Source of the DNA: an uncultured Spirochaetota bacterium
GTDB taxonomy: Bacteria > Spirochaetota > B62-G9 > DRHN01
Assembly (NCBI GenBank): GCA_964433545.1
Contig: CAYSRJ010000002.1
Location: 37,020 to 101,019, forward strand
DNA length: 64,000 bases
Reading direction: 5' to 3'
The position numbers and the translations under genes are program-made. Positions 2,676 through 24,072 of the stretch are shown here, in pieces. The first letter of the stretch is position 1. Every line of letters starts with the position of its first letter. The notes beneath the pieces are model-generated. The model did no database searches. It was not told the DNA's origin and saw only the letters and a list, made by a program, of their open reading frames with translations.

Positions 2676-2718
2676 TCATTCCTCCGATACCCGGCTCTGT
2701 ATTGCCGGGGTACCTGTT

Positions 2719-3786
2719 TTACAGGGTTTGATCCTTTTTTCTTTTAAAGATGGAAAAGATACGTGACAGCTCGGGAATTGCGAGAAAAAGCACGACGACC
2801 CCCTCCAGTACACGGACCATCTCGAGGGGGACCTGGGCTAAGAGCTGCATCATCCTACCCCCGGCTAACAGGCCGCCGAAAAAAATCGCGGCAAAGATAA
2901 TCCCTGCCGGATGGTTTCTTCCGATCATCGCTACAGCGAGGCCGTCGAAACCGAGGTTCTGTATGGCGGGCAGACCGCCGAACACCGCGTATGTGGGGGG
3001 GCGGCCCATGACGTGCACTGCACCTCCGAGTCCGGCGGTTATCCCGCCCATCACGAATACGGAAAGTATCACCCTCCATTTTTCAATGCCCGCATACCTG
3101 GCTGCATCCTGGTTGTAGCCCATGGCCCGCAAGTCAAAACCGATGACTGTCCGCCAGATAAAAAGCCATACAAGGGCGGCTGCAGCAACAGAGAGAAAAA
3201 TACCGTAGCTGAGGCTTGTTCCCGGCACGAGCAGGGCGAAACGTGCGCCTCTGGCAATGCTGACGGTTTTCTCGGCCCTCTGAGGGTCGACGAGTACTTT
3301 TGAGATGAGGTAGAATGATAAAAAATGCGCGACCCAGTTGAGCATAATTGTGGATATTACTTCATGGACTCCCCTGGTGGCTTTCAAAACGGCAACAGGC
3401 ATACTCCAGATTATTCCGGCAAGTGCCGCTGCAATAATACTCAAAACAAAGGAAAGTGCAGGCGGGAGTCTCAGCAGGGTTATTGAAACAGCAGCAAGCG
3501 CCCCCAGATACAGCTGGCCCTCGGCACCGATATTGAACATGCCGCCCCGAAATCCGACAGCAAAGGTAAGTGCGGTAAGTATCAGTGGCGTGGCGTTTGC
3601 GACTGACTCTGAAAACCCGTACAGGTCACCGAATGCGCCGCTGAGAAGGGCCTGATACGCTGCTATCGGATTATATCCGTATGCCAGTATGATGAGTGCA
3701 CCAACGCAAAACCCGATAACTCCTGCAGTGATCGATTTTCTCAGCTCTTCCGTTCGGTCACGCGCGGTTTTTTTCCAGTCCTTCAT
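2719..3786 (-). CDS. ABC transporter permease (BMP-family nucleoside uptake system)
   Basis: 355 aa polytopic membrane protein, branched-chain/ribose permease family fold. Confidence 0.85.
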   Translation of the reverse strand: MKDWKKTARDRTEELRKSITAGVIGFCVGALIILAYGYNPIAAYQALLSGAFGDLYGFSESVANATPLILTALTFAVGFRGGMFNIGAEGQLYLGALAAVSITLLRLPPALSFVLSIIAAALAGIIWSMPVAVLKATRGVHEVISTIMLNWVAHFLSFYLISKVLVDPQRAEKTVSIARGARFALLVPGTSLSYGIFLSVAAAALVWLFIWRTVIGFDLRAMGYNQDAARYAGIEKWRVILSVFVMGGITAGLGGAVHVMGRPPTYAVFGGLPAIQNLGFDGLAVAMIGRNHPAGIIFAAIFFGGLLAGGRMMQLLAQVPLEMVRVLEGVVVLFLAIPELSRIFSIFKRKKDQTL

Positions 3787-3935
3787 TTAGAGTTATTTTT
3801 CCTTCACTGTATATTTACCCATTATACTTCTCTCAGTTAGGCGCCCTGCATGGTGAAAGGTAGGGTTTTCGAATGTCCAGTTTGTTCATTTAACGTGTTG
3901 GGAAATCAATTTCACACAGGACGTTTTCTGAAACA

Positions 3936-3968
3936 AAGAAAGGGGACAGCACCGGCTGTCCCCTGTAG
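3936..3968 (-). terminator. Stem-loop (GGGGACAGC-ACC-GCTGTCCCC) with flanking A/T runs between bmp and the permease genes; possible intra-operon attenuator or bidirectional terminator
   Basis: 9-bp perfect inverted repeat; A-run upstream on + (a U-run on the minus transcript); T-run downstream on +. Confidence 0.5.
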
Positions 3969-3978
3969 TTTTGAAAAC

Positions 3979-5175
3979 TTAGCGTGTCAGCGGGTATTTC
4001 GATCTGACTGCTTTCATCTCCTTGAGTGTGTTCGCTGTTGGAACGCTGACCTGGCCGGAAATTATCTGCTTCTCCAGGTCGTCAACCGCCCGCCAGATGA
4101 ATTCCGGAATATCGTTTCGCATACGTTTCCAGTTTGCAATTATTCTTCCCTTGTCCTGTGCGGTGATCTTTTTCGATTCAATACCGAACTCCATGAAGGT
4201 GCTGAGGTCTTCATACTTGCTTATGGCAACACCTTTTGAATCAAGACCCATAACAACGAGTCCTCCTTTGAATGTGCCGTTGACAACGGCCTTGACTGCA
4301 TTATAGCAGCCGTTATCCACACGCTTCAGCGCACTGGCAAGAACCCGATGCCCGTCTCCCATCCAGTCCTGATCTGCATCCACACCGATCATAAAGGGCG
4401 GGCCCGCTTCTTTTCCCTTTGCCTCGATTGCTTCGGTAACGGCCTGCAGGTCGCCTATTCCAAGCGGGCCGGCGACATTGTAGATAAGCCCGGCCCCCTG
4501 GGCGAGCATCGCTTTGGATGCTTCTTTTCCTTTAGCGATATCGGAGAAAGTTCCCGTATAGGTGTACAGAAGCCCAATATTCGGGTTCTTTCCCTTTACC
4601 TTTGCATACCGTTTGTTTCCCCAGTCGATGCCGTATCGGAACCCTGCTTCGAAATGGTACAACACTGGGATTTCAATTCCGAGCACACACCCCACATTGG
4701 GATAGCCGTAATAGGCCGCGGTCATCGCTGATAGAGCTCCGACGAGCGCCGAGCATTCATTTTCCTTGAAAACGATGGACATCACATTCGGTGAATCGAC
4801 TACAGAATCGATTATCATAAACTTCTGATCGGGAAACTCCTTCGCGACTGTTGAAACAGCATCGGTAAGCAGGAACCCGACCGCAATGATAAGATCGAAT
4901 CTGCCCGACCTGGCTGCATTTCGTACATTAGGAAGGTAATCGGCTGCGGAAGCGCTCTGAATTTCAACCATCTTTAAACCGAAATCGGCAGCCGCCCTGT
5001 CGGTACCCATGAACCCCATGTCGTTAAAGGCCAGGTCGCCTCGTCCGCCGACATCGAGCACAACGGCAACATTGCCTTTGAGCTTCGCATGCGCTGTTCC
5101 AGGTGCGACTAACAAACCAAAAACAAATAGTACTGCCACAACGGCGCACATCAATGACTTTTGTTTGATATTCAT
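3979..5175 (-). CDS. BMP-family (basic membrane protein / PnrA-like) ABC substrate-binding lipoprotein, probably nucleoside-binding
   Basis: 398 aa; N-terminal signal peptide; BMP/Med family sequence features; first gene of the ABC operon. Confidence 0.8.
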   Translation of the reverse strand: MNIKQKSLMCAVVAVLFVFGLLVAPGTAHAKLKGNVAVVLDVGGRGDLAFNDMGFMGTDRAAADFGLKMVEIQSASAADYLPNVRNAARSGRFDLIIAVGFLLTDAVSTVAKEFPDQKFMIIDSVVDSPNVMSIVFKENECSALVGALSAMTAAYYGYPNVGCVLGIEIPVLYHFEAGFRYGIDWGNKRYAKVKGKNPNIGLLYTYTGTFSDIAKGKEASKAMLAQGAGLIYNVAGPLGIGDLQAVTEAIEAKGKEAGPPFMIGVDADQDWMGDGHRVLASALKRVDNGCYNAVKAVVNGTFKGGLVVMGLDSKGVAISKYEDLSTFMEFGIESKKITAQDKGRIIANWKRMRNDIPEFIWRAVDDLEKQIISGQVSVPTANTLKEMKAVRSKYPLTR

Positions 5176-7183: not shown

Positions 7184-8146
7184 TTACGCGTGAAGGAAGC
7201 AGGCGACGAACTGCCCGGGTTTATTTTCCTTCAATTCCGGTACTTCTTTATCGCATACGTCCATCTTATAAGGACATCGTGGATGGAACCTGCATCCTGA
7301 AGGAGGGTTGACAGGGCTCGGAACATCTCCCATTAGAATTTCCCCCTTTTTTCTGCGCCTCGGGTTGGGAATGGGTATTGCTGATAGAAGCGCTTCAGTG
7401 TATGGGTGCTTTGGGTCGTCAAAGAGAATTTTTTTAGGTGCCATTTCAACAATTTTGCCCAGGTACATGACTGCAACGCGGTCGCTGATGTGTTTTATGA
7501 TACTCAGATCGTGAGCGATGAAGAGAAGGGTTATCCCGAATTCCTCCTGCAAATCCTGCAATAAATTGATGATCTGGGCCTGAATTGAAACATCCAGAGC
7601 GGAGACTGACTCATCTGCAACGATAAATTCCGGGTTTATCGCCAGAGCCCGTGCGATTCCGATTCGCTGCCTCTGTCCCCCACTGAACTCATGGGGATAG
7701 CGAAACCTCTGATCGGCTGTGAGCCCCACCTTTTCCATTATTTCTATTACCTTCTCATCTCGTTCTTTTTTCGGTACGGTTCTATGCACTGCCAGAGGTT
7801 CGGCAATTGCTGATTTCACGGTCATTCTCGGATCAAGGGAGCCAAACGGGTCCTGGTAAATGATCATCATCCTGCGCCTGATCGGCATCATCTCCTTTTT
7901 TTTCAAATGAGTGATTTCTCTGCCACCAAAATAGATGCTGCCTTCGGTAGGATCCAGTATCTTCAGGATAACCTTCCCGCACGTTGTTTTGCCGCAGCCC
8001 GATTCTCCGACAAGCCCGAGGACTTCTTTCTGTTTAATAAAGAAGCTCACATCATCCACAGCCCTCACGGCCTCTTTTCCCATAGGGCCCCTCTTCCCTG
8101 TCCAGAACCATTTTCTCAGATTTTTAACTTCAACCGTTTTCTCCAA
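7184..8146 (-). CDS. oppF: Oligopeptide/dipeptide ABC transporter ATP-binding protein (OppF/DppF-like)
   Basis: 320 aa; Walker [10 protein letters not shown]; C-terminal oligopeptide-ABC extension with conserved Cys. Confidence 0.85.
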
Positions 8147-8171
8147 CCTGACTGTCCCCCTGGAGTTTTTC

Positions 8172-9134
8172 TTAATATAAGTGGCATTTTACGAAATGAT
8201 TGGTATCGATTTCCTTTAATTCCGGAGATTCGGTGACACATTTTTCGAAGCAAAAATTGCACCGTGGATGAAATGAACATCCTGAGGGCATGGCTAAAAG
8301 ATTCGGGACCAGACCTTTTATTGTATCGAGACGTTTCACGTTTTTGTCCAGCCGAGGTATGGATTTATTGAGTCCCATCGTATAGGGGTGGAGCGGGTTG
8401 CTGAACAGTGCATCAATATCGGCATACTCAACGATGTGTCCTGCATACATCACTGCAACATCGTCACACATTTCTGCAATCACACCGAGATCATGGGTTA
8501 TCAGCAGTACCGAAGCGTTGATTTTAGCCTTCATTTCATTGATCAATCTCAGGATCTGGGCCTGGATGGTTACATCAAGTGCGGTTGTAGGTTCATCGGC
8601 GATGAGCAGCGCAGGGTGGCAGGACAACGCCATTGCGATCATTACTCTTTGTCTCATTCCGCCGGAAAGCTCATGAGGGTAGTTGTTTAACCTCTTTTCT
8701 GCATCAGGAATCCCGACAATCGCAAGTGCTCCTATTGCTGCTTTTTTTGCCTCTGTCTTATTCAATCCCTGATGCAGGGTGATTGATTCCATTATTTCAT
8801 GGCCGATGGTGAATACGGGGTCAAGTGATGTCATTGGCTCCTGAAAAATCATTGATATTTCGCACCCTCGAATCTTTCTCATTTCCCTTTCAGTCAGATT
8901 CAGGAGGTTCTTTCCCTTAAAGATTATTTCTCCTCCCACAATCTTTCCGGGAGGATACGGAACCAGCCTCAAGATGGAAAGAGCCGTAATACTCTTGCCG
9001 CATCCGGATTCTCCGACGAGCCCCAGTGTCTTGCCCTGGTTTATGGTTAGACTTATTCCATCAACAGCTTTTGCTGTTCCCTCATACATATAAAATGAAG
9101 TTTGCAGGTTTTTTAAATTCAGCAACTCTTTCAT
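8172..9134 (-). CDS. oppD: Oligopeptide/dipeptide ABC transporter ATP-binding protein (OppD/DppD-like)
   Basis: 320 aa; Walker A GESGCGKS; LSGGMRQR signature. Confidence 0.85.
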
Positions 9135-9142
9135 ATTCCGCC

Positions 9143-10024
9143 CTATGTTTTCAATCTTGGGTCAAGAATATCCCGCAGGCCGTCTCCCAGCAGGTTGAGG
9201 CCTAACACCGAAAAAAGAATGGCAATACCGGGAAAAGTAGCCACCCACCATGCGCCGCTCACTATGTAGGAGTAACTTTTAGAGAGCATCGCTCCCCATT
9301 CAGGAGTTGGGGGCTGGGCTCCCAGGCCCAGAAAACCCAGCGCTGCACAGTCAAGAATTGCCGTCGCCAGCATCAGGGTTCCGTATACAATCACCGGTGC
9401 AACGCTGTTCGGTAGAACATGACGGAAAATAATCCGCAGGTTTCGTGAACCGAGCGCAGTCTGCACCTCTATATACTCCATTTCCTTGATGTAGAGTACC
9501 GAGCTCCTTATAATTCTCGCCATCTGCGGTGTGTATACAATACCGATAGCTATCATTGCTTTACTCAGCCCCTGGCCTATGATGGTCACGATGACGATTG
9601 CAAGAAGCAGCGCAGGGAATGCAAACATAATGTCGACGAATCTCATAATTGTTGCATCGACCCATCCCCCGAAATAGCCCGCGATTATTCCAAAGGTAAT
9701 GCCGAGTATCATTGCAATGCCAACGGCAACAAAACCTGCACTCAAACTGACCCTGGTTCCGTATATGATTCTGCTGAGAACACACCGTCCGAGGGCATCG
9801 GTTCCAAGCGGCTTGCCCTTCAGGCCTTCTGCGCTCCAGAAACCTGGTTTTAATTTATTGGCAAGATCGGGCGGTGAGGGAATGGGATCATTGGGCGCAA
9901 TGATGTTTGCGAAAATTGCACAGAGGATTAAAATAATGAGAATTACAAGACCGAACGTCGCGGACTTGTTGTATTTCAGCCGTCTTATTACTTCTGCGGC
10001 TCTGGTTTCTTTCTTCTTCTCCAT
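9143..10024 (-). CDS. oppC: Oligopeptide ABC transporter permease (OppC/DppC-like)
   Basis: 293 aa membrane protein of the BPD_transp_1 family; operon context. Confidence 0.85.
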   Translation of the reverse strand: MEKKKETRAAEVIRRLKYNKSATFGLVILIILILCAIFANIIAPNDPIPSPPDLANKLKPGFWSAEGLKGKPLGTDALGRCVLSRIIYGTRVSLSAGFVAVGIAMILGITFGIIAGYFGGWVDATIMRFVDIMFAFPALLLAIVIVTIIGQGLSKAMIAIGIVYTPQMARIIRSSVLYIKEMEYIEVQTALGSRNLRIIFRHVLPNSVAPVIVYGTLMLATAILDCAALGFLGLGAQPPTPEWGAMLSKSYSYIVSGAWWVATFPGIAILFSVLGLNLLGDGLRDILDPRLKT

Positions 10025-10035
10025 TTGTATCCTGC

Positions 10036-11040
10036 TTACTTGTATTTAATCCTCGGATCGATGAACACATAGAGGATATCTGTAATCAGATTTACGATAA
10101 CGAACATAAAAGCAAAAAACAGCACACACCCCTGTACGGCGGGGTAATCTCGCATGCGCACCGCATTTATAACGTATCTCCCTATTCCTGGCCAGGAGAA
10201 AACTGTTTCTGTGAGGATTGCGCCTGCCAGAAGCAAACCGAAGTTCAATCCTATAACCGTAATTACAGGAAGCATTGCGTTTTTCGCCGCGTGTTTATAG
10301 ATGACAAGCCGTTCCGATAGGCCTTTTGCGCGTTCCGTGCGGATGTAATCCTGTCTCAATACCTCCAGCATACTCGACCGGGTCACTCTGGCGATCGTTG
10401 CCATGGGGATGGTGCCGAGGGCGACGGAGGGAAGGATTAAATAGCGGATAGTGCTTATGAGAGCCGGACCATTCCAGGTAATGATGCTGTCAAGAAGGTA
10501 GAAGCCGGTGATATGCCTGAAGGGAATAAGTGAATCGATACGCCCGCTTATGGGAAGCCACCGTAAAAACACGCCAAAAACCATCATGAGCATAATACCA
10601 AGCCAGAAAACTGGCATAGAGACCCCGAAAAGCGCGACTCCCATGGTGGAATAATCGAGAATAGAGTACTGCCTGGAAGCCGAGATGATCCCCGCGAATG
10701 AACCGACAAGAATGGCGATCGCCATTGCACAGAAGGTGAGCTCAACAGTATTGGGAAACCTGTGAAATATTTCCTTTGTAACGTATTCATTTGAAACAAT
10801 AGAGCGTCCCATATCACCATGCAGGACTCTTTTCAGCCAGATCCAGTACTGCGTTGTAAGCGGTTTATCAAGTCCGTATTTTTCTCTTATTGCATTGATT
10901 GTCTGCACGGATGCATGCTCACCCGCCATCGTTATTGCGGGGTCTCCCGGTGCTAGCTGTATTAACGCAAATGAAAGCATTGAAACACCCAGCAATACGG
11001 GTACGAGCATGAGAAGGCGCTTGGTGATATACCATTTCAT
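10036..11040 (-). CDS. oppB: Oligopeptide ABC transporter permease (OppB/DppB-like)
   Basis: 334 aa membrane protein; operon context. Confidence 0.85.
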   Translation of the reverse strand: MKWYITKRLLMLVPVLLGVSMLSFALIQLAPGDPAITMAGEHASVQTINAIREKYGLDKPLTTQYWIWLKRVLHGDMGRSIVSNEYVTKEIFHRFPNTVELTFCAMAIAILVGSFAGIISASRQYSILDYSTMGVALFGVSMPVFWLGIMLMMVFGVFLRWLPISGRIDSLIPFRHITGFYLLDSIITWNGPALISTIRYLILPSVALGTIPMATIARVTRSSMLEVLRQDYIRTERAKGLSERLVIYKHAAKNAMLPVITVIGLNFGLLLAGAILTETVFSWPGIGRYVINAVRMRDYPAVQGCVLFFAFMFVIVNLITDILYVFIDPRIKYK

Positions 11041-13026: not shown

Positions 13027-13206
13027 GGTGAACCTCCTTGAAAAGAATGATTACTAATAATTGTACGCAGTTATAAAATAAATACAAGAAAATTAATTTA
13101 AGAAACGGGGCTATTTTTATATAGTTTTGCGGGGTGTGTATTTACAGAAAGCGAGTGTCAAACGCACGTACAGGTTTTCTGAACTGAAGTATTAATACCG
13201 AGTATA

Positions 13207-13250
13207 TAAAAAAGAGCCGGGTTGATGTTTCACAAAACATCCCCGGCCCC
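13207..13250 (-). terminator. Rho-independent terminator ending the hox operon
   Basis: Hairpin GCCGGG..TGATGTTT-CACAA-AACATC..CCCGGC followed on the minus strand by TCTTTTTT. Confidence 0.6.
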
Positions 13251-13328
13251 TGATATACAGGAAACTCAATCGATTGTCTGATTTTTCAAAGCGCTGTTTT
13301 CCAAAACCCCGTGTTCCGTAGTAATGGG

Positions 13329-14180
13329 TTATTTAATGTTGAGCTTAGTCTTCAGCGTGCTTATGAGGATCTCGTGGTTGATCGGCTTCTGAAAAATACC
13401 GTCAAGACCGAGCTCCTTCGCATCGATGTTGTAGCGAACCGTATCTCCTGCAGCGCTGAGCAGGTAGATTGGGCCCTTGAACCCCGATTCTTTCAGCTTC
13501 GCCGATACCTTGCTGCCGGCATCGACCGTTTCCATCATCAGGTCGACAATGACGGCATCAGGATTCACTTTCTGGGCGACTTTCAAGCCCTCTTCACCGT
13601 CACCCGCCTCTCCGATTGAAAATCCGGCTGCCTCTAACACTATGCGCATGGAAGCCCTGATATCGGCATCGTCATCAATGATTAATACTGTTTTTTCCTC
13701 ATTTTGCGTGGTTGCCATAGTTCTTTCCTCATATGTACGTAATAGTTGAGTTATAAAATGAAACGTCTCTCGGTAGTTCTCCCGTGCCCTTTCGGTGAAA
13801 CCCTCCGCAAACTCGAACTCGTATCCCCTGATGCCGATGATCCATACATCGGGTACCCTGCCGAATGCATCCTCACACAGGGCCACGACAGATTCAGGGT
13901 TGACCAGGTGACTCGTGAAGGTGATGGTGGAAGACGGCAACACCTTCCGAATTGAAAAGCAGTCGACATCCTGAACCGTCGTATCGATGAGGATGATAAA
14001 ATCATGCTCCGCCATTTCTGCGGCATCCTCGATACTCAGCTGGTAGTTCGCATCCGTTTCGACAAAGCTGTAACCGAGACATTCTATCTCCTCGATCATG
14101 GCCGGGCCAAGGCCGTCGTCCTGGCGACCCGGGTTCCCGTATCCGAATATGAGCACAGGTTTGCCGTCCAGCCCCTTCAA
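13329..14180 (-). CDS. hoxW: [NiFe]-hydrogenase maturation endopeptidase (HoxW/HybD/HycI family) fused to a C-terminal response-regulator receiver (REC) domain
   Basis: N-terminal VLIFGYGNPGRQDDGLGPAM protease motif (about 150 aa); C-terminal about 120 aa with VLIIDDD...DAVIVDLMM...FQKP receiver hallmarks; last gene of the hox operon. Confidence 0.75.
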   Translation of the reverse strand: MKGLDGKPVLIFGYGNPGRQDDGLGPAMIEEIECLGYSFVETDANYQLSIEDAAEMAEHDFIILIDTTVQDVDCFSIRKVLPSSTITFTSHLVNPESVVALCEDAFGRVPDVWIIGIRGYEFEFAEGFTERARENYRETFHFITQLLRTYEERTMATTQNEEKTVLIIDDDADIRASMRIVLEAAGFSIGEAGDGEEGLKVAQKVNPDAVIVDLMMETVDAGSKVSAKLKESGFKGPIYLLSAAGDTVRYNIDAKELGLDGIFQKPINHEILISTLKTKLNIK

Positions 14181-15619
14181 TCACGAACCTTTTCATCGAG
14201 CACTGCGCCGTTTTTGTCTTCCAGGGTCACGATAAGGGGCATCTGACCTATTGCATGGGTGGCACAGCTCAGGCAGGGGTCATAGGCCCGTATTGCAACT
14301 TCAACCAGGTTCAGAATAGGTTCTGTAACCTCCTTGCCGACAATATAATCCTCTGCAACAACGCGCACAGCCTCATTCATCGGCTGATTGTTGCTCGTTG
14401 TTGAAACGATGAGGTTTGCCATGGTAACCTGGTCTTTGTCGTCGACCTGATAGTGATGAAACAGGGTACCCCTCGGCGCCTCGATAATGGCAATTCCCTC
14501 GTTTCTTTTCTCGCCCGATACAACGAGGTCCTCCCCCTGTAGATCGGGATCATTCAGAAGTTCTTTAATCCTCTCAGCAGCATACAGGGTTTCGATCAGC
14601 CGCGCCCAGTGATAGGCCATGGTCGAATGAACGGGCCTGCCGCCCCCGAGCTCCATAAACTCCTGGCGCTCCTTCTCTGCCTTCGGCGTTGTGATAAAAT
14701 CACAGTTGTTCAGCCGTGCGAGCGGGCCGACGCGATACCAGCCCTTCTCCTGGCCGAGTGAGTAGATGAACGGGAATTTCATGTAGCTCCAGTTTCTCAC
14801 CCCTTCCCGAATATACTTCAGGTAGTCTTTCGGCTCGACCATATCGAAAATCAGTTTGCCGTCCGGGTCTTTCGCCCTGAGTTTTCCGTCATACATATCG
14901 AGCGCCCCATCCTCACGCACAATGCTGACAAAATTCGATTCAAAGGATCCGAGTTTGCCCAGGCGGGCGATATCGTCGCGGTAGAGTTTTTTGTACAGAT
15001 CAAGACCCCCCTGTGCCCAGTCGATCATCTGGTCGACATCCTTGAGCAGGGCATCCCGTTCTTCGATCGACAGGTTCTTATTGACGCCGCCGGGAATCGA
15101 ACCGTTTCCGTGTATCTTTTTGCCTGCGGTTGCCTTGATAACCTCCTGACCGTACTTTCGCATCATTACCGCCTGCACTGCAAGATCCGTGTTTTTCTTT
15201 GCGAGCCCGATGACGTTCCTGATTGCGGGGTCCGCATCGTATCCCAGTAAAAGATCGGGTGCACTGAGGTGGAAGAAGTGCAGTGAATGGGACTGGTATA
15301 CCTGCCCCATGTGCAGGAGCCTCCTCATCTTCTCGGCGGTCGACGTGAGCTTGTCTGCGCCGATAATGACATCCATTGCCTTGGATGCGCAGAGCAGGTG
15401 GCTGACAGGACATATCCCGCACAGGCGCTGCACTATAACCGGTGCTTCCCAGTACAGGCGGCCGCGCACAAAGCGTTCGAAACCACGAAACTCCACAATA
15501 TGCATCCTTGCCTTGTCGATCTTCCCGTTTTCATCGAGTCTGATCGTTACCTTGGCATGTCCTTCAATCCGTGTCACCGGGTTGATGACAATTTTTCTTG
15601 CTTTTGTCTCAGAAGCCAT
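14177..15619 (-). CDS. hoxH: [NiFe]-hydrogenase large subunit (group 3 bidirectional/HoxH-like)
   Basis: 480 aa; N-terminal RIEGHAKV and RLCGICPVSH (CxxC); C-terminal DPCLSCATHA metal-binding motif followed by a cleavable extension. Confidence 0.9.
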   Translation of the reverse strand: MASETKARKIVINPVTRIEGHAKVTIRLDENGKIDKARMHIVEFRGFERFVRGRLYWEAPVIVQRLCGICPVSHLLCASKAMDVIIGADKLTSTAEKMRRLLHMGQVYQSHSLHFFHLSAPDLLLGYDADPAIRNVIGLAKKNTDLAVQAVMMRKYGQEVIKATAGKKIHGNGSIPGGVNKNLSIEERDALLKDVDQMIDWAQGGLDLYKKLYRDDIARLGKLGSFESNFVSIVREDGALDMYDGKLRAKDPDGKLIFDMVEPKDYLKYIREGVRNWSYMKFPFIYSLGQEKGWYRVGPLARLNNCDFITTPKAEKERQEFMELGGGRPVHSTMAYHWARLIETLYAAERIKELLNDPDLQGEDLVVSGEKRNEGIAIIEAPRGTLFHHYQVDDKDQVTMANLIVSTTSNNQPMNEAVRVVAEDYIVGKEVTEPILNLVEVAIRAYDPCLSCATHAIGQMPLIVTLEDKNGAVLDEKVRD

Positions 15620-15639: not shown

Positions 15640-16179
15640 TTAGTCGTATTTGATTAACTCGTACGGCAGCTTGGGTTCTTCGCCTTTAAGCAGAGCCGTT
15701 AACGCAGCCCAGAAAGTTTCCGCTCTGGGAGGACAGCCGGGCAGCCAGTAATCGATCTTCACCACCTCGTGGATAGGGTAGACCTTGTCCAGGATAAGCG
15801 GAATATCGGGGTCGTTCGGGATGACGCCGTCGACGACGGACGGGCCTTTGAGATACGCTTCCTCCATGCATTCTCTGAGGGGAATCGTGTTTCTCAGGTG
15901 GGGAACCCCCCCGGTATTGGCGCATTCTCCGACTGAAATGAGAATTTTGCAGTGCTTGCGAAAAGAACGAAGCACCTCGACATTCTCCTGCGTCGAGCAT
16001 CCTCCCTCTATCAGGCCGATATCTACAGGGCCTGTAAACTTCTTTATATCGTCTATGGGTGATTTGTCGAAATCCACAAGCTCGATCAGGTCGAGTATCT
16101 TCTCATCGATGTCGAGCAGAGACATGTGACAGCCAAAGCACCCCGTCATATGAGTTGTCGCTACTTTTGGTTTGGCCAT
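15640..16179 (-). CDS. hoxY: [NiFe]-hydrogenase small subunit (HoxY-like, NuoB/20 kDa-type)
   Basis: 179 aa; Cys ligands typical of the proximal FeS cluster in group-3 small subunits; adjacent to the large subunit. Confidence 0.85.
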   Translation of the reverse strand: MAKPKVATTHMTGCFGCHMSLLDIDEKILDLIELVDFDKSPIDDIKKFTGPVDIGLIEGGCSTQENVEVLRSFRKHCKILISVGECANTGGVPHLRNTIPLRECMEEAYLKGPSVVDGVIPNDPDIPLILDKVYPIHEVVKIDYWLPGCPPRAETFWAALTALLKGEEPKLPYELIKYD

Positions 16180-16205: not shown

Positions 16206-16919
16206 TTACGGAGCCTTTTGAATATCCGAACCAATGGGTTGCTTGTCGTACAGGCGGGTGCCGAATGGCTTTGCATAGCCGATACGTTTGATGACAATAC
16301 AGCCGGTCGGGCAGATTGAAGCCGCCTTGTCGGCTGCTGCAAGCTCTGTATCGGATAATCGGTCGCCTTGTGAATTAACCGCGATTCGCTTGTTTATGCC
16401 GCGCCCGACAAACCCGAACACGCTTTTCCCATCGAGGTCACGCGATGCCCGCACACACCTTCCGCAGAGAACACACCGCTCACGGTCTATATACACATCC
16501 GGATGTGTCGCATCGACCTCGACATGTTTGTACTGGTAGGTGTATGTCGGGGTGAGCATGCCGAAACGGTATGCAAGCGCCTGCAGTTCGCAGTCGCCGC
16601 TTTTTTCACAGAACGGACAGAAGTGATTCCCCTCGACAAAAAGCATCTCAATTATATTCCGGCGCTCTTCTGTTAATTCCGGAGTTTCATTTTCGATGAC
16701 CATACCGTCTGCGGCAGGCATTGAACAGGCGTTAGTCGGTTTTCCGTTGACTTTTACCGTGCAGACACGGCAATGTCCGGCCGGAATCAGGTCCTTGTGA
16801 TAGCAGAGGCGTGGGATATAGATTCCCGCTTCATCGGCTGCCTGCATGATCGACTGGCCGGAAGCCGCCTTGATTTCTTTACCGTCAATGATTATTGTTA
16901 TTTTTTGCTCTTTCATCAT
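16206..16919 (-). CDS. hoxU: Hydrogenase diaphorase FeS subunit (HoxU-like; NuoG N-terminal/2Fe-2S + 4Fe-4S ferredoxin)
   Basis: 237 aa; N-terminal 2Fe-2S ferredoxin fold (ITIIIDGKEIKA...CYH...C..C) and multiple CxxCxxC motifs. Confidence 0.8.
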   Translation of the reverse strand: MMKEQKITIIIDGKEIKAASGQSIMQAADEAGIYIPRLCYHKDLIPAGHCRVCTVKVNGKPTNACSMPAADGMVIENETPELTEERRNIIEMLFVEGNHFCPFCEKSGDCELQALAYRFGMLTPTYTYQYKHVEVDATHPDVYIDRERCVLCGRCVRASRDLDGKSVFGFVGRGINKRIAVNSQGDRLSDTELAAADKAASICPTGCIVIKRIGYAKPFGTRLYDKQPIGSDIQKAP

Positions 16920-18739
16920 TCCTCCTCTTCCACCACAGGTTCTCTTCCAGCGATCTGGATTCCCACAGCAAGCGCTTTTTCATAGTCAAACGGCGGAATA
17001 AACTCGTCAGTTTTTGCCTTTGCCGTATACAGCGAGTGAAAATTTCTGAGCGTCGTCAGAATCGGATTTGCCGCAGTTTGGCCGAGGCCGCAGCGGCTCA
17101 TCTTCTCCACCGTGTTTCCGAGGCTCTCGATCTCCTGCAGGTCCAGTTTCGATCCTCTTCCTTCAAGAATTTTCTCGAGCTTCTGCAAAAGGAGTGTCGT
17201 TCCGACCCTGCATGGTGCACACCACCCGCACGATTCTTCAACAAAGAATTCGGTGAACTGCCTGACAATTTCAAGAAGGTCCCGTTCTTTGCTGAAAACG
17301 ATTATTGAGCCGCCGGTTGGAAGGTCTTCAAAACTGATACTTCTTCCAAAATCCTTCGGTGCAACGCATCGTCCGGATGGTCCGCCGACCTGAACCGCCT
17401 GTGTGTCTTTTGCTCCCACAAGATCGAGCAGATCGTCGATTGTAATTCCATATTCGACCTCATACACCCCTGGGTGCGCACAATCGCCTGACACGCTCAG
17501 GCATTTTGTACCTGTTGAATCTTTCGTGCCGATTTTCGAAAACCATTCGGCGCCCTTCTCCATGATACGGGCGGCGCAGCAGAATGTTTCGACATTGTTG
17601 ACGGAACTCGGCTGGTTCATATAGCCACGGGTAACGGGAAACGGCGGTCTGTCGCGCGGCGCGCCCCGTTTTCCTTCGAGCGATTCAATGAGTGCGGATT
17701 CTTCGCCGCACACATAGGCCCCTGCACCGACCTGAATTCGAATATCGAAGTCGAATCCCTGCCTGCCTGCGATATTTTTGCCGAGAAGGCCAAGATGTCT
17801 CCTACGATTAAGAACCTGCTCGAGTGAGCTGAGAAGGTATTTAAATTCTCCTCTCAGGTACATGAATCCCTGCGATGCGCCTATTGCATATCCTGCAATC
17901 GTCATTCCTTCAAAAGCGAGATCTGCAGCTTCGGTGAGGATGACCCTGTCTTTAAAGGTGCCGGGTTCTCCTTCATCCGCATTGCAGATCACATAGTGCT
18001 CTTTTCCCTCCGATTTTCTGCAGAAGTTCCACTTCATGCCCGTCGGAAAACCGGCACCGCCGCGGCCGCGAAGGCGTGATTCGGTAATTGTATTTATCAC
18101 ATCCTCCGGTGACATGTTGAGTGCGGCCCTGATTCCGCTCCCCGGTTCCTGAGGGGAGAAAACAACGGGACCTGTTTTATTGAGATTGTTCTCCACCAGG
18201 GTGGCAGGAAGAACCGTCGCTGCTTTTTCAGGGCTGTACTTCGAACCGCCTTTGAGCTCTTTTACTATGCCCGGCACATCTTCCGGACATATTTTTGTAA
18301 CGGGGATGCCGTTGATGAGAGCAGACGGAGGCTGATCACTCATCCCGATACATGAAGTGTACTCAAGTGAAATCGAACCGTCCGTGCTCGTGCTGCCGAA
18401 GGGAACACCCACTTCTTTTTCGAAGGTATCCGCGACAAGGTCGGCCCCATGCAATCTCTCGACAACAGCATTGCAGAGACGGACCACGCTCTTTCCTGTC
18501 GGTTCACGAGAAAAGAAGGTATAAAAACTCACCATGTCACGAACTTCGACGAGGGGGATACCCAGTGCCCTTGCAATGTGCCCCATGCTCTCCTCGGAAA
18601 TATATCCGAATCGATTTTGTACCTTTTGTGCAATATCCATCAAGTTGCTGCGGTCGCTGCAGCACTCCTCGACAATTTCCTTGATGGCTTTACTTTGATC
18701 ATTTGCCATTACTGTACCTCCGATTGAATAATCAGTCAC
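16916..18739 (-). CDS. hoxF: NAD(P)H-binding diaphorase subunit (HoxF-like; fused NuoE-like thioredoxin-fold 2Fe-2S domain + NuoF FMN/NADH/4Fe-4S domain)
   Basis: 607 aa; NuoF-type GxGxxG/FMN motifs and C-terminal CxxCxxC...C cluster; N-terminal NuoE-like region. Confidence 0.85.
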   Translation of the reverse strand: MTDYSIGGTVMANDQSKAIKEIVEECCSDRSNLMDIAQKVQNRFGYISEESMGHIARALGIPLVEVRDMVSFYTFFSREPTGKSVVRLCNAVVERLHGADLVADTFEKEVGVPFGSTSTDGSISLEYTSCIGMSDQPPSALINGIPVTKICPEDVPGIVKELKGGSKYSPEKAATVLPATLVENNLNKTGPVVFSPQEPGSGIRAALNMSPEDVINTITESRLRGRGGAGFPTGMKWNFCRKSEGKEHYVICNADEGEPGTFKDRVILTEAADLAFEGMTIAGYAIGASQGFMYLRGEFKYLLSSLEQVLNRRRHLGLLGKNIAGRQGFDFDIRIQVGAGAYVCGEESALIESLEGKRGAPRDRPPFPVTRGYMNQPSSVNNVETFCCAARIMEKGAEWFSKIGTKDSTGTKCLSVSGDCAHPGVYEVEYGITIDDLLDLVGAKDTQAVQVGGPSGRCVAPKDFGRSISFEDLPTGGSIIVFSKERDLLEIVRQFTEFFVEESCGWCAPCRVGTTLLLQKLEKILEGRGSKLDLQEIESLGNTVEKMSRCGLGQTAANPILTTLRNFHSLYTAKAKTDEFIPPFDYEKALAVGIQIAGREPVVEEEE

Positions 18740-19364: not shown

Positions 19365-19607
19365 ATGCACGAGCTTTCAATCACGGAAGAGCTGCTTATG
19401 ATAATACACCGGCGTGCTGGAGAGGAGGGCATACAGAAGATTTCGAAAATCAACCTGAAAATCGGAAAGTACTCCGGTGTGTTCACCGATGCGCTTCTCT
19501 TTGCATTCGACGTGCTCTCGAAGGACACAATTTCCGAGGGGGCTCACATCAGTATAGAAGAGACAGGAGGGTCTGAACTCCAGGTTCTTTCGTTTGAGGG
19601 AGACTGA
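19365..19607 (+). CDS. hypA: HypA-like hydrogenase nickel insertion protein, truncated (N-terminal Ni-binding domain only; no Zn-finger)
   Basis: Starts MHELSITEEL (canonical MHE Ni-binding N-terminus); aligns to HypA residues 1-75, then stops; the CxxC...CxxC zinc motifs are absent in all frames downstream. Confidence 0.6.
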   Translation: MHELSITEELLMIIHRRAGEEGIQKISKINLKIGKYSGVFTDALLFAFDVLSKDTISEGAHISIEETGGSELQVLSFEGD

Positions 19608-19720
19608 CGGGTAAAATCCTCGGTTTACAGGAGATTTCAATAGTTATTCGGACGCTTCGCGTCTGAATAATGCCGCTTAACGGCGGAATCATATCAACTA
19701 CATCTTGAAAGGATGAATCC

Positions 19721-20362
19721 ATGAAGGTAAATGTTATGACCGATATTCTGCAGGCGAATGACCTTCTTGCGCAGGATATCAGGAATATACTTCATGACAA
19801 GAAGATCGCATGCTGGAATGTCATGGGATCGCCCGGTGCCGGAAAGACCGCAATGCTTGAACGGCTTGTGCCGATGTTGCCCGCGGAGATAAAAGCGGCC
19901 GTGATAGAGGGTGATCTCGCAACATCGCGTGATGCCGAGAGGATTTCGAAAACCGGCGTGCAGTCCGCGCAAATCAATACGAACGGCGCATGCCATCTGG
20001 ATGCCGCGATGGTGAGATCGGCTCTCGATACGATCGAGCTCGACGATATTTCCCTGCTGTTTATCGAAAATGTCGGAAACCTCGTCTGCCCGTCGGGTTT
20101 CGATCTCGGTGAGAAGGGAAGAATAATTGTCGCCGGTATTACAGAGGGCGATGACAAGCCGGAGAAATATCCCTCGATGTATAAGACTGCGGACCTGGTG
20201 GTGGTCAATAAGATGGATATGCAGGAGAACTCGAATTTCAAGATCGAGAACTTCGAAAAAGGGCTTAAAATGATCAACCCTTCATCTGATATTGTTCCCG
20301 TTTCCTCTGTAACCGGAGAAGGCTTTGACAATCTCCTCGGATGGATACTTGACAGGCAGTAA
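19721..20362 (+). CDS. hypB: Hydrogenase nickel incorporation GTPase HypB
   Basis: 213 aa; P-loop GSPGAGKT; ENVGNLVCP motif; SIMIBI GTPase. Confidence 0.9.
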   Translation: MKVNVMTDILQANDLLAQDIRNILHDKKIACWNVMGSPGAGKTAMLERLVPMLPAEIKAAVIEGDLATSRDAERISKTGVQSAQINTNGACHLDAAMVRSALDTIELDDISLLFIENVGNLVCPSGFDLGEKGRIIVAGITEGDDKPEKYPSMYKTADLVVVNKMDMQENSNFKIENFEKGLKMINPSSDIVPVSSVTGEGFDNLLGWILDRQ

Positions 20363-20365
20363 CAA

Positions 20366-22672
20366 ATGGAAAATGCCGGTACAACCGGTGCCGTTATATG
20401 GTACAAAGGCATCGTGCAGGGGGTGGGGTTTCGGCCGCTCGCGTACAGAAGGGCCCACCTTTATCGCCTCAGAGGAACCATCAGAAACACCGAAACCGGT
20501 GTGCACATTGAGCTGGACGGCTCAAGGCGGAGCATCGAACAATTCTACAGGGACGTTCTGAAAAATCCACCGGTTCTCGCTGAAATACATACAAGCTCGA
20601 TCGAATACACGAAACCGCACGGGTTTACAAAACTCAGGATTGCCGGGAGCACCGCAGAAGGAGAGGGGTTTACACCGATCTCCCCGGATATTGCCACCTG
20701 TGACAACTGCCTCGAGGAAGTATTCGATCCGAATAACAGAAGATATCTCTACCCTTTTACCAACTGTACCGACTGCGGACCGCGATTTACAATAATCCAG
20801 TCAGTTCCATATGATAGAAAAAATACGACGATGAGTGAATTCGTCATGTGCTCCGACTGCAGGGCCGAATATGAAAATCCCCTTGACCGCCGGTATCATG
20901 CTCAGCCGAATGCATGTCCCGTATGCGGGCCTTCACTCGAATTGAGGGCCCCGGACGGATCTGTTATCGAAAAAGACGCGCTGGATAATGCGGTCTCGCT
21001 GCTCGAACAGGGGGCTATTGTTGCAGTCAAAGGGCTCGGCGGCTATCATCTGGCAGTTTCACCGCAGAGGCCTGAGTGGGTAATGCGTCTACGGAAAATG
21101 AAGCGGAGGCCCGCAAAACCGTTTGCCTTGATGGCCCGGGATATGCCGACGATAAGGAAGTACTGCATCGTCGGGGAACGGGCAGAGGACCTGCTTGCAG
21201 GCTTTGAACGGCCCATCGTCCTGCTTCGGGGAAGGAAAGGCAAACTTCCCAATGAAATCGCCCCTGATACAGATTGTATCGGTATTATGCTGCCCTACAC
21301 TCCTCTGCATCATATTCTTCTAAGAGAAGGGCCTGAAATACTTATAATGACGAGCGCGAATGTATCCGAGGAACCGCTTGTCTACCGGGACGACGAGGCG
21401 TCAGAAGAGCTCACCGGTATTGCTGATGCATTTCTCGTGCATAACAGGAAGATACAGCGCCCCTGCGACGATTCGGTTTTTTTTGTGAGTGATGGGGTTC
21501 CTGTACCGGTGCGAAGGTCACGTGGGTATGTGCCGAAGGCTATACCCGTCGGCCCGCCTGAAAGGACACTGCTGGCGTTCGGCCCGAACGAAAAAAACAC
21601 CTTCTGTGTTTTTCGGGAAGAAATGGCCTATGTGAGCCACCACATAGGGGATCTGAACAACACCAAGAGTATCGACGCCTATACAGCGGGTATTCAGGAT
21701 TTTTTGAGTATGCTGAGGGTGGAGCCTGAAATACTCGTCTGTGACATACACCCCGATTATATAAGCACACGCATTGCAGAAAGGATGGCCTCGGATCGGG
21801 GAATACACCTTGAGCGCGTTCAGCATCATCATGCGCATATAGCCAGTGTTCTCGGTGAAGCAGATGTTAATGACGCCGTGATTGGTGTTGCACTTGACGG
21901 AACAGGATACGGGACTGACGAGACGATATGGGGTGGTGAGTTTCTTATTGCAACACAGAAGGATTTTACCAGGGCCGCGCGGTATTTCCCCGTTCCCATG
22001 CCTGGAGGTGAAAAGGCGATTATCGAAACTGACCGCATGGCGGTTTCTTACTTGCTTCATGCCTTTGGGTCAGCATCGGGAATTCCGGATTTCCCGTTTA
22101 TTGTAAAATACGATAAAAAAAAGCTGGCACTTTTTGAAAAGATGATACATTCGGGGATTAACTGCCCGCGTACCTCCTCCTGCGGCAGGTTGTTTGATGC
22201 GGTGTCGGCTCTGATAGGCCTCTGTGTTCAGCCGTCATATGATGCACAGCCGGCCGTGCTTCTTGAAACGGCGGCAGGTCCTCCGGAAGCACTGTCCCTG
22301 TCACCGGAGAATGCTTATTCATATAGTATCGATGACGGGATGAACCTGCATTTCGAGCCTGCAATCAGAGAAATCGTCAGCGATATGCAAGGGGGGAGTT
22401 CCCGCAATTTTATCTCACAAAAGTTTCATGCAGCTGTTATATTATCTGGTGTTGATGTATGCAGGCGCCTTCGGAAAAAAACAGGAATAAACACCATTGC
22501 CCTGAGCGGCGGTGTATTCCAGAACCGAATTATTTTAAAGCTCATCCGACGCCTGCTGTCGGAGAATAATTTTTCAGTGCTTTTTCACAGATTGATGCCA
22601 CCGAATGACGGCGGTATTTCCTTCGGGCAGGGAATTGTTGCCCGTCGGCGGTGCGGAAGGGGTGTGGAATAA
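20366..22672 (+). CDS. hypF: Carbamoyltransferase HypF
   Basis: 768 aa; N-terminal acylphosphatase domain, two CxxC-x18-CxxC zinc fingers, YrdC-like and Kae1/HypF C-terminal domains. Confidence 0.9.
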   Translation: MENAGTTGAVIWYKGIVQGVGFRPLAYRRAHLYRLRGTIRNTETGVHIELDGSRRSIEQFYRDVLKNPPVLAEIHTSSIEYTKPHGFTKLRIAGSTAEGEGFTPISPDIATCDNCLEEVFDPNNRRYLYPFTNCTDCGPRFTIIQSVPYDRKNTTMSEFVMCSDCRAEYENPLDRRYHAQPNACPVCGPSLELRAPDGSVIEKDALDNAVSLLEQGAIVAVKGLGGYHLAVSPQRPEWVMRLRKMKRRPAKPFALMARDMPTIRKYCIVGERAEDLLAGFERPIVLLRGRKGKLPNEIAPDTDCIGIMLPYTPLHHILLREGPEILIMTSANVSEEPLVYRDDEASEELTGIADAFLVHNRKIQRPCDDSVFFVSDGVPVPVRRSRGYVPKAIPVGPPERTLLAFGPNEKNTFCVFREEMAYVSHHIGDLNNTKSIDAYTAGIQDFLSMLRVEPEILVCDIHPDYISTRIAERMASDRGIHLERVQHHHAHIASVLGEADVNDAVIGVALDGTGYGTDETIWGGEFLIATQKDFTRAARYFPVPMPGGEKAIIETDRMAVSYLLHAFGSASGIPDFPFIVKYDKKKLALFEKMIHSGINCPRTSSCGRLFDAVSALIGLCVQPSYDAQPAVLLETAAGPPEALSLSPENAYSYSIDDGMNLHFEPAIREIVSDMQGGSSRNFISQKFHAAVILSGVDVCRRLRKKTGINTIALSGGVFQNRIILKLIRRLLSENNFSVLFHRLMPPNDGGISFGQGIVARRRCGRGVE

Positions 22673-22899
22673 TGTGTCTTGCGGTAACAGGAAAGATAAT
22701 AACTAAAGAGGGCTTGACCGGCGTAGTGGACATGAGTGGGATCAGGGTCAATACCGGTTTTCATCTTGTTCCGGAAGCAAAAGTGGGCGACTACGTTTTG
22801 CTTCATGCCGGGTTTGCCATACAGATCATTGACGAGCAGGAAGCGCTTGAAACGAACGCCCTGCTCGATGAGCTTCTTCATCCGGAGGAAATCCGGTGA
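22651..22899 (+). CDS. hypC: Hydrogenase maturation factor HypC
   Basis: 82 aa; starts MCLAV (essential Cys2); overlaps hypF by 22 nt. Confidence 0.85.
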   Translation: MRKGCGIMCLAVTGKIITKEGLTGVVDMSGIRVNTGFHLVPEAKVGDYVLLHAGFAIQIIDEQEALETNALLDELLHPEEIR

Positions 22900-23981
22900 A
22901 TGAACCGTACAGGGACAGGGAGCTGGTAAAGACGGTTACACGGAAAATACACGATGTCTATCCGGGCGACGCGGTCAAGATCATGGAAGTCTGCGGCACA
23001 CACACAATGGCGATCGCCAAATACGGCCTCAGAAGCCTTCTCCCGGACGGACTTTCGCTCATCTCCGGCCCTGGATGCCCGGTTTGTGTCACACCTTCAT
23101 CTATCATAAACGCGGTGCTCGAACTGGCAGTGCTTCCGAATGTCACTGTTGCGACATTCGGCGATATGATTCGTGTTCCGGGCTCTGATAAAAATCTCGA
23201 ACAGTTAAAAGCCGAAGGTGCCGATGTTCGCATTGTCTATTCGGCGTATGAACTGATCGACATGGCATCATCCGAAAAGGACAGGGAGTTCGTTTTCGTC
23301 AGTGTCGGATTCGAGACTACTACCCCTGGGATTGCGCTTGCAATTCTGGAGGCGGAAAAACGGGGTATAAAAAACCTGTTTTTCATAGCTGCAAACCGTC
23401 TGGTGATACCGGCGCTTGAGGCACTCTGCATCAGTGAGAACACGCTGATAGACGGTTTTTTATGCCCCGGCCATGTCAGCGTTATTATCGGCTGGGACGC
23501 GTACCGGCCGATTGCAGACCGGTTTCATGTGCCGTGCGTTGTCGGCGGTTTCGAGCCGGTTGATATATTGACGGCTGTCTACGAAATCGTCCGGCGGGTG
23601 TCAAAGGGAGAGGCTGGCGTCGCCAATACCTATAAAAGAGCGGTTTCCGAGAAAGGAAATGCGCGCGCCCTTGAAGTGATGGACAGGGTGTTCGAGCCGG
23701 CGGATGCCGCCTGGCGCGGTATAGGTACAATCCCAAAAAGCGGCCTAAAGCTTCGTGATGAGTTTGCCCACCTCGAGGCGCTGTCTCATTTTAGGGTTCA
23801 TCTCATCGAAAGCCCCGACCCGAAGGGGTGCCGATGCGGTGATGTTCTCAAGGGGGTGATAATTCCGCCTGAGTGTGCGTTGTTCGGAAAGAGATGCACC
23901 CCCGAGAATCCTGTCGGGCCGTGCATGGTTTCTTCTGAAGGATCCTGTGCAGCCTACTACAGGTACCCAAAAAGCGAGTAA
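22896..23981 (+). CDS. hypD: Hydrogenase maturation factor HypD
   Basis: 361 aa; CGxH, GPGCPVC and C-terminal CxxC...CxxC HypD motifs. Confidence 0.9.
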   Translation: MNEPYRDRELVKTVTRKIHDVYPGDAVKIMEVCGTHTMAIAKYGLRSLLPDGLSLISGPGCPVCVTPSSIINAVLELAVLPNVTVATFGDMIRVPGSDKNLEQLKAEGADVRIVYSAYELIDMASSEKDREFVFVSVGFETTTPGIALAILEAEKRGIKNLFFIAANRLVIPALEALCISENTLIDGFLCPGHVSVIIGWDAYRPIADRFHVPCVVGGFEPVDILTAVYEIVRRVSKGEAGVANTYKRAVSEKGNARALEVMDRVFEPADAAWRGIGTIPKSGLKLRDEFAHLEALSHFRVHLIESPDPKGCRCGDVLKGVIIPPECALFGKRCTPENPVGPCMVSSEGSCAAYYRYPKSE

Positions 23982-24072
23982 GTACCCAAAAAGTGGGTAA
24001 CTACCCGATTCCTCATTTTGCAGCTGTGATGTATAATTCAGTTAGAAATCTTCGAGATGATGGAGGTGGGGC

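Follow-up and report, generated by a model that had tools for sequence, protein, structure and literature searches.

The 64 000 nt stretch analysed here (hereafter the window; positions 37 020-101 019 of contig CAYSRJ010000002.1, assembly GCA_964433545.1, from an uncultured Spirochaetota bacterium) harbours on its reverse strand a [NiFe] hydrogenase operon, the last gene of which, hoxW-REC (13329-14180, reverse strand), encodes a 283 aa fusion of a maturation endopeptidase with a CheY-like receiver (REC) domain. As judged from Pfam domains, hoxW-REC is the fifth and final gene of the cluster, preceded on the same strand by hoxF (16916-18739), encoding a 607 aa NAD(H)/FMN subunit with a HoxE-like 2Fe-2S N-terminus, an FMN/NAD site and a 4Fe-4S domain; hoxU (16206-16919), encoding the diaphorase Fe-S subunit; hoxY (15640-16179), encoding the small subunit with an Oxidored_q6 domain; and hoxH (14177-15619), encoding the [NiFe] large subunit, i.e. 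the presumed substrate of the endopeptidase. With HoxH (PF27537 match), HoxY and a HoxF/HoxU diaphorase, the enzyme has the composition of a group 3d [NiFe] hydrogenase (NAD-coupled bidirectional Hox type).

The TTG start codon of hoxW-REC shares four nucleotides (TTGA) with the hoxH stop, and its ORF is unbroken, with no ambiguous letters in the window. About 80 nt past the stop codon lies an intrinsic terminator (13206-13251, reverse strand; hairpin 13212-13251, U-run 13206-13211) with a folding energy of -27.7 kcal/mol (z -4.6; none of 200 shuffles folded as well). It was found by folding the strand after a consensus terminator scan had missed the hairpin because of its long loop. Gene order and terminator agree with the first-pass annotation, made from the sequence alone, which had placed the gene at the end of a hoxFUYH operon. 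HoxH itself ends in DPCLSCATH followed by a 25 aa extension (14180-14254), and a tail of 25-27 residues follows this motif in all 42 distinct related loci.

Domain structure of HoxW-REC

The endopeptidase domain, of the HybD/HycI/HoxW type, comprises aa 9-148 (13737-14156, reverse strand) and contains the motif GNPGRQDDGLG at aa 15-25. The NCBIfam model TIGR00072 ('hydrogenase maturation protease') matches aa 10-146 with 54.3 bits (cut-off 47.45), while the Pfam model PF01750 (HycI) gave no match on the 283 aa product even at E<=10; recognition of this half depends on the profile model used. A comparable difference was seen against the PDB, where a single-sequence phmmer search was marginal (HybD, E 0.12) and a profile search significant (1cfz), and the domain fits the HybD-type alpha/beta fold. 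In the profile-to-1cfz alignment, the predicted metal ligands are D22 (14115-14117), D66 (13983-13985) and H91 (13908-13910), which align with the metal positions of HybD, E16, D62 and H93 of the Escherichia coli protein. None of the three varies in two of our alignments (A1 and A2), and in a third (A3) their conservation is 90 % or higher. This half is a member of peptidase family A31, and its cleavage of the HoxH precursor is predicted to be nickel-dependent. The HoxW/HybD-type assignment of the first-pass annotation is thus upheld by TIGR00072, the aligned ligands and the GNPGRQDDGLG motif, and of the two Pfam models proposed there as a check, PF00072 is matched and PF01750 is not.

The receiver domain (aa 164-280; 13341-13691, reverse strand) matches PF00072 and the (beta-alpha)5 fold; NCBIfam RssB models are among its best matches, yet score far under their cut-off. 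Its active site is made up of an acidic pocket (D169-D171), the phospho-acceptor D213 (13542-13544) within DAVIVDLMM, S242, and K265 (13386-13388) within FQKP. D169, D170, D171, D213, S242 and K265-P266 do not vary among 63 sequences, the most distant of which is 54 % identical to the window protein. The complete receiver called in the first-pass annotation, which was to be abandoned if the D-D-T/S-K quartet or the profile match were lacking, is thus retained: the D-D-S-K set is complete and the profile matches. The alpha4 region, GDxVRYNxDxxELGLxGIFQKP, is strongly conserved, and besides the active-site loops the highest conservation of the domain lies on the alpha4-beta5 face, the face that receivers normally use for output. 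At the K-3 position on beta5 stands an invariant Ile (I262), which we take, from CheY Y106, to be the position of the usual aromatic switch residue. This half is a member of the CheY-like receiver family that looks phosphorylatable, with phosphorylation predicted at D213. Both halves are intact and under purifying selection, with a mean pairwise identity of 53 % for the protease and 73 % for the receiver.

Between them, a junction of aa 149-163 (13692-13736, reverse strand) consists of the end of the protease C-terminal helix and a variable linker of about nine residues. In the AlphaFold2 model, the helix spans aa 130-158 and pLDDT falls below 50 at aa 158-160. The full-length model reached a pLDDT of 86 and a pTM of 0.56, with both domains confident; their relative orientation is not fixed, since the pTM is only 0.56.

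Divergently from the hox operon and upstream of it lies the maturation cluster hypA-hypB-hypF-hypC-hypD-hypE (19365-25116, forward strand; hypA and hypC coordinates mapped from the related locus L057), with neither a protease nor a regulator inside. As the sole A31 protease in a window with a complete hyp set, HoxW-REC must be the working HoxH protease. In agreement with the first-pass annotation, no histidine kinase was found in the window: no ORF of at least 130 aa carries HisKA or HATPase_c, hidden Markov models (HMMs) for kinases, receivers and proteases, built locally and run over all six frames, returned hoxW-REC as their sole match, and tblastn with kinases of related loci gave no match.

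Distribution of the fusion

A search of a 5.8-billion-protein collection yielded 1928 matches, of which the best 120 clusters (90 % identity) were examined. All of these are 255-307 aa long and align over 92-100 % of the query with 54-100 % identity; they therefore represent the same fusion, which gives at least 120 clusters of full-length relatives. The exact 283 aa protein is present on 13-19 contigs from independent samples. In a scan of one genome per species, the fusion protein was found in 48 species-level metagenome-assembled genomes (MAGs), the majority from Spirochaetota, the remainder from Nitrospirales/Nitrospiraceae, Hydrogenedentota, Phycisphaerae and one Alphaproteobacteria bin, with no cultured isolate among them. 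In a library clustered at 50 % identity, only one further full-length representative appeared among the best 150 matches, which argues that the fused form is a compact sequence family and not an architecture reinvented among distant proteases. The gene order hoxF-hoxU-hoxY-hoxH followed by hoxW and the receiver, fused or separate, was found in every locus with enough flanking sequence.

The closest relatives of the window protein (88-92 %) belong to Spirochaetota. Elsewhere in the window, an 896 aa protein (45824-48514, reverse strand) carries GreA N- and C-terminal domains only in its last approx. 155 residues, the first approx. 740 being without a Pfam match; spirochaetes are known to have very long GreA proteins, and this one fits the affiliation of the closest hoxW-REC loci.

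In source databases, the relatives are named 'hydrogenase maturation protease', 'response regulator', 'CheY-like chemotaxis protein' or nothing at all, and the precomputed Pfam annotation of the 120 listed relatives holds PF00072 alone. We found no dedicated NCBIfam model for the combination and no description of it in the literature searched. Surveys of Pfam architecture are blind to these proteins and will class them as plain response regulators, because PF01750 misses the protease half (13710-14180, reverse strand, in the window). The first-pass annotation had reckoned with the fusion being already common and well annotated: since it is common (at least 120 clusters, 48 genomes), half of that objection holds, whereas the generic names do not amount to good annotation.

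Fused and split states

When the ORFs of all loci were scored with domain HMMs, the fused state of protease and receiver was found in about 36 loci and the split state, with the same gene order, in about 18. Split loci encode a protease of 150-190 aa and a receiver of 124-135 aa in genes that abut or overlap, and at least 14 of them stem from short-read assemblies or metagenome contigs. Examination of the nearest 'stand-alone' proteases and receivers added three further split pairs, i.e. L063, where hoxW, the receiver gene and a kinase gene stand in a row, L065 and L067. Fused or split, the receiver is of one constant subtype, marked by DLMMETVDAG and SxGDxVRYNIDAxELGLxGIFQKP.

The two states can lie a single base apart. 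In L020 an in-frame TGA stands two codons ahead of the receiver ATG, where its relative L015 reads through, and in the split locus L045 the run GGGAAAAAC is one A longer than in its fused relatives, L021-L029. This one-A difference, at approx. 10430-10452 of L045, falls in GGGAAAAA(A)C just ahead of the receiver ATG, the split form reading A AAA AAC; it could be an ordinary mutation, an assembly error or slippage. Within Hydrogenedentota, L010 is fused and L039 and L044 are split, and on a neighbour-joining tree of HoxH the states are interspersed throughout, Fitch parsimony requiring 8-9 changes among 41-42 loci compared with 9.1 for shuffled labels and inferring a split root. Judging from this tree, fused and split states appear to interconvert often. 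Some caution applies to four long-read MAGs (L035, L037, L038 and L041), in which several hox genes show frameshifts, falling into two tblastn segments, a sign of indel errors: their split state is unreliable for this reason, and some long-read 'split' loci are possibly sequencing artefacts.

The true unit is a conserved pair of hoxW and receiver, fused or adjacent, and the association of the two is genetically obligatory: in all of the roughly 50 related loci the pair directly follows hoxH. HoxW-REC of the window is therefore not an isolated curiosity; it represents, in fused form, a widespread and hitherto unrecognised module.

A possible internal start at the junction

The junction contains an in-frame ATG (M155; 13716-13718, reverse strand), with the Shine-Dalgarno (SD)-like sequence GAGGAAAG upstream at 13723-13730. 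M155 is at least 90 % conserved within an otherwise variable linker. From this residue the window protein reads 'MATTQNEEK...', while the stand-alone receiver P0146 opens with 'MATTQNKK...'; the junction ATG is the equivalent of the start codon of the stand-alone receivers.

A purine-rich, SD-like run precedes this ATG in 30 distinct fused junctions, with a median anti-SD duplex energy of -7.25 kcal/mol, compared with -3.0 kcal/mol for 117 other internal ATGs of the same genes; 97 % of the junctions reach -4 kcal/mol or lower, versus 12 % of the control ATGs (Mann-Whitney p = 7e-15, not an exact probability, as the sequences are related). The window junction scores -6.3 kcal/mol. By contrast, the SD ahead of the TTG codon that opens the full-length protein is weak (-3.4), initiation there relying on the overlap with hoxH. 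We considered whether the SD-like junction is a mere by-product of amino-acid conservation, and this is disfavoured: the purine run and the ATG are kept across lineages whose encoded residues differ (YEER, YGER, WRGK, WKGK, WREE, RGSEAF and others), so that selection at the nucleotide level is likelier. The SD and ATG could also have been retained through recent, repeated fusion events instead of selection. Overall, the pattern suggests that the receiver's own translation start still works inside fused genes, which would then have two products, and a free receiver of about 129 aa may be made besides the full-length protein. If the internal start works, switching between the fused and split states would be cheap.

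Histidine kinases and other neighbours in related loci

In 12 of approx. 52 loci the hox-hoxW-receiver cluster has a histidine kinase gene as its direct neighbour, whereas kinases make up about 2 % of the genes elsewhere in the same flanks; kinase genes are thus enriched beside the cluster, far above chance. One recurrent arrangement is a PilS-like kinase of 450-500 aa with six transmembrane segments (6TM kinase) encoded directly after the receiver, found in Nitrospirales (L040, 10885-12288), Hydrogenedentota (L044, 10997-12517), Phycisphaerales (L048, 7765-9273) and on a metagenome contig (L063, 847-1410), with a more distant copy in a spirochaete (L028, 10925-12283). The copies share 44-48 % identity across groups. 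The family is large, and one relative located away from hox genes (L070) lies on another contig of the MAG that contains L018. The 6TM kinase may be a partner in some lineages, but it is not a fixed part of the module.

A different arrangement was found in L018, from a Nitrospirales bin, and in L013/L064, from an unclassified bin, where two kinase genes are divergent from hoxF. The first encodes an [FeFe]-hydrogenase-like kinase with 4Fe-4S, Fe_hyd_lg_C (the H-cluster domain of [FeFe] hydrogenases, 164-169 bits), FeS, HisKA and HATPase_c domains, and the second, present also in L060, a REC-HisKA-HATPase protein. The genes hydG, hydF and hydE, for the H-cluster maturases, are located just downstream of the fused gene in L013/L064 and in L011. 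These kinase and hydG-hydF-hydE regions span 1539-4794 and 11242-17440 in L013/L064, 1792-5147 in L018 and 2680-8309 in L011. No DNA-binding response regulator was called in the 18 kb of L064, and within 18 kb the only receivers of L013/L064 are the REC-kinase's own and that of HoxW-REC. From its gene content, this neighbourhood looks like an H2- or redox-sensing relay dedicated to the [NiFe] Hox enzyme. In HydDB, 'histidine kinase-linked' [FeFe] group C1 proteins are listed as putative H2 sensors of undetermined role (PMC5037454), and a survey of Hydrogenedentota could not tie the group C1 proteins to a process (PMC11406978).

Hybrid GAF-PAS, HAMP or PAS kinases are present in other loci. In L006, 2.5 kb from the fused gene, an 827 aa protein (7946-10429, reverse strand) has an N-terminal histidine kinase core and a long C-terminal part that by eye resembles a pyridine-nucleotide disulfide oxidoreductase followed by a rhodanese domain. 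Directly upstream of hoxF in the fused locus L062 lies a Rex-like gene (Put_DNA-bind_N and CoA_binding domains; 3940-4623), which, from its domains, would provide a transcriptional redox input replacing the kinase. A 468 aa protein with CdhD-like and 4Fe-4S dicluster domains is encoded on the same strand directly downstream of the fusion gene in L021 (2234-3640) and at the equivalent place in L022, L023, L025, L027, L029 and L045, i.e. in seven Spirochaetaceae loci in all.

What the receiver may control

The reading we favour, tentatively and at somewhat less than an even chance, is that HoxW-REC is a Hox-specific HoxW-type endopeptidase joined covalently to a dedicated single-domain response regulator, so that processing of HoxH would be phospho-gated. 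A histidine kinase encoded elsewhere in the genome would phosphorylate D213, and the phosphorylation state of the receiver would set whether, or how fast, HoxW removes the HoxH tail. The receiver would act via its alpha4-beta5 face while tethered by the linker of about nine residues to the C-terminal helix of the protease, and assembly of active hydrogenase would then depend on the signal. In some lineages this signal is probably H2 or the redox state, sensed by the [FeFe]-hydrogenase-like kinase, and the fused gene would also yield a free receiver from its conserved internal ribosome-binding site and ATG. It is tempting to go further and see a phosphorelay ending on the endopeptidase-coupled receiver, headed in some lineages by an [FeFe]-like H2 sensor kinase matured by HydGEF, with the final, irreversible proteolysis in [NiFe] cofactor assembly as a signal-gated checkpoint and the fused gene making two products, full-length HoxW-REC through coupling to hoxH and free receiver from the conserved internal start; taken as a whole, this fuller scheme is rather unlikely to hold.

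The protease step is favoured as the target because the receiver gene immediately follows hoxW in both fused and split loci (always, given enough sequence, apart from the distant L049), because fusions persist in many divergent lineages (a Rosetta-stone argument), and because the best-resolved kinase-containing locus is without transcriptional output, having no dedicated DNA-binding regulator.

Several observations weigh against such gating. The full-length AlphaFold2 model, at the pTM given above, has no confident contact between protease and receiver. Frequent splitting means that the covalent link is dispensable, and would be seen just as well if the two proteins had no more in common than their operon. 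A receiver so much better conserved than the protease (73 versus 53 %) would sit more easily with a partner as slow to change as HoxH, HoxY or HoxF than with the faster-evolving HoxW. Several unrelated types are represented among the flanking kinases, and the majority of loci, the window included, have none; the 6TM kinase was rejected as a universal partner, as three sampled distant relatives on long contigs lie away from hox genes. Finally, the receiver of L049 adjoins the 5' side of hoxF and not hoxW: it is a separate gene (2731-3108; hoxF from 3128) at 39 % identity, with the DLMMETVDAG motif, on a high-GC contig that ends before the rest of the operon.

The pair could thus act on the protease step or on something else in the Hox system. 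It is almost as likely as gating, though again short of an even chance, that the receiver is a genuine phospho-acceptor of the Hox system without being aimed at the protease, acting instead on the assembled hydrogenase or diaphorase, or serving as a relay intermediate or phosphate sink for a kinase with transcriptional output. The fusion itself would then be near-neutral, arising, with the same likelihood, when coupled, overlapping neighbour genes lose a stop codon or the frame. A state distributed almost at random on the HoxH tree (8 changes versus 9.1 for shuffled labels), the single-base events that part fused from split forms (the TGA of L020, the extra A of L045), the internal SD and ATG that leave a free receiver possible, the far stronger conservation of the receiver than of HoxW, the related receiver upstream of hoxF in L049 and the relay-like multi-kinase arrangements of L013, L018 and L060 all point in this direction. 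The three observations that single out the protease step, i.e. the constant position behind hoxW with L049 as the one exception, the lasting fusions in divergent lineages and the lack of a dedicated DNA-binding regulator, speak against it.

It is improbable that the C-terminal domain is a phosphorylation-independent (pseudo-)receiver, i.e. a structural, dimerisation or docking module that needs no kinase. Such a module would agree with the lack of a kinase gene in the window and in most related loci and with the invariant Ile I262 at K-3 on beta5, the usual aromatic switch position; pseudo-receivers, however, typically lose some of the phosphoryl-transfer residues, every one of which is invariant here in 63 sequences, and kinase genes are enriched next to the cluster. 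That two real genes were merged only through a frameshift error in sequencing or assembly is barely credible and is rejected for the window: although fused and split versions can differ by one base of an A-run and frameshifts affect further hox genes in the long-read loci L035, L037, L038 and L041, the ORF in the window runs through without ambiguity, the identical 283 aa protein is found on 13-19 contigs from independent samples, and the 30 distinct fused junctions come in many cases from short-read assemblies.

In the current view, nickel insertion leads to removal of the large-subunit tail without further regulation, by a protease particular to each hydrogenase, and we know of no regulator of this step. 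That about 50 species-level genomes from five groups have a conserved, dedicated receiver on or beside the Hox protease suggests post-translational regulation. If phospho-gating is true, the cell could hold HoxH back in unprocessed form and activate this reserve when a signal arrives, and this would be the first two-component control of metalloenzyme maturation rather than transcription. The putative H2 sensors of [FeFe] group C1, 'histidine kinase-linked', would thereby also gain a concrete output.

Comparison with known systems

HoxW of Cupriavidus necator (Ralstonia eutropha) and HybD and HycI of E. coli are C-terminal endopeptidases of [NiFe] large subunits belonging to peptidase family A31. 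They are single-domain proteins of about 150-165 aa, whereas here a receiver is fused or encoded immediately downstream, and the protease half has diverged from the known members enough to escape PF01750. To our knowledge, no regulatory partner has been described for any known A31 member.

Like CheB, in which the unphosphorylated receiver blocks the active site of the methylesterase, HoxW-REC combines a hydrolytic domain and a receiver in one polypeptide. This is a functional analogy only: in HoxW-REC the receiver is C-terminal, the catalytic fold is unrelated, the parts are often separate proteins, and no inhibitory interface is predicted (AlphaFold2 pTM 0.56). CheV, a CheW domain with a C-terminal receiver, shares the order of an N-terminal functional domain followed by the receiver, and its modules, too, occur elsewhere as separate proteins; CheV differs in being a chemotaxis coupling protein with an unrelated N-terminal domain. 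CpdR and RssB are response regulators that serve as phosphorylation-dependent adaptors for proteolysis by ClpXP. In these systems receiver phosphorylation decides the action of a protease on its substrate, as would be the case here, and CpdR is a single-domain protein like the receiver of the split form. They differ in that the substrate is degraded by an ATP-dependent machine, whereas HoxW would make a single maturation cut as a metal-dependent endopeptidase, and no homology past the receiver fold is implied.

Kinase-receiver signalling dedicated to a hydrogenase is familiar from HoxBC-HoxJ-HoxA and HupUV-HupT-HupR, in which H2-sensing two-component control ends on an NtrC-type DNA-binding regulator and thus on transcription. 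A likeness to the [FeFe] group C1 proteins is seen in L013 and L018, where an [FeFe]-like kinase with hydGEF neighbours the hox-hoxW-REC cluster. Unlike HoxA and HupR, the receiver described here lacks a DNA-binding domain, and its tie is to the maturation protease.

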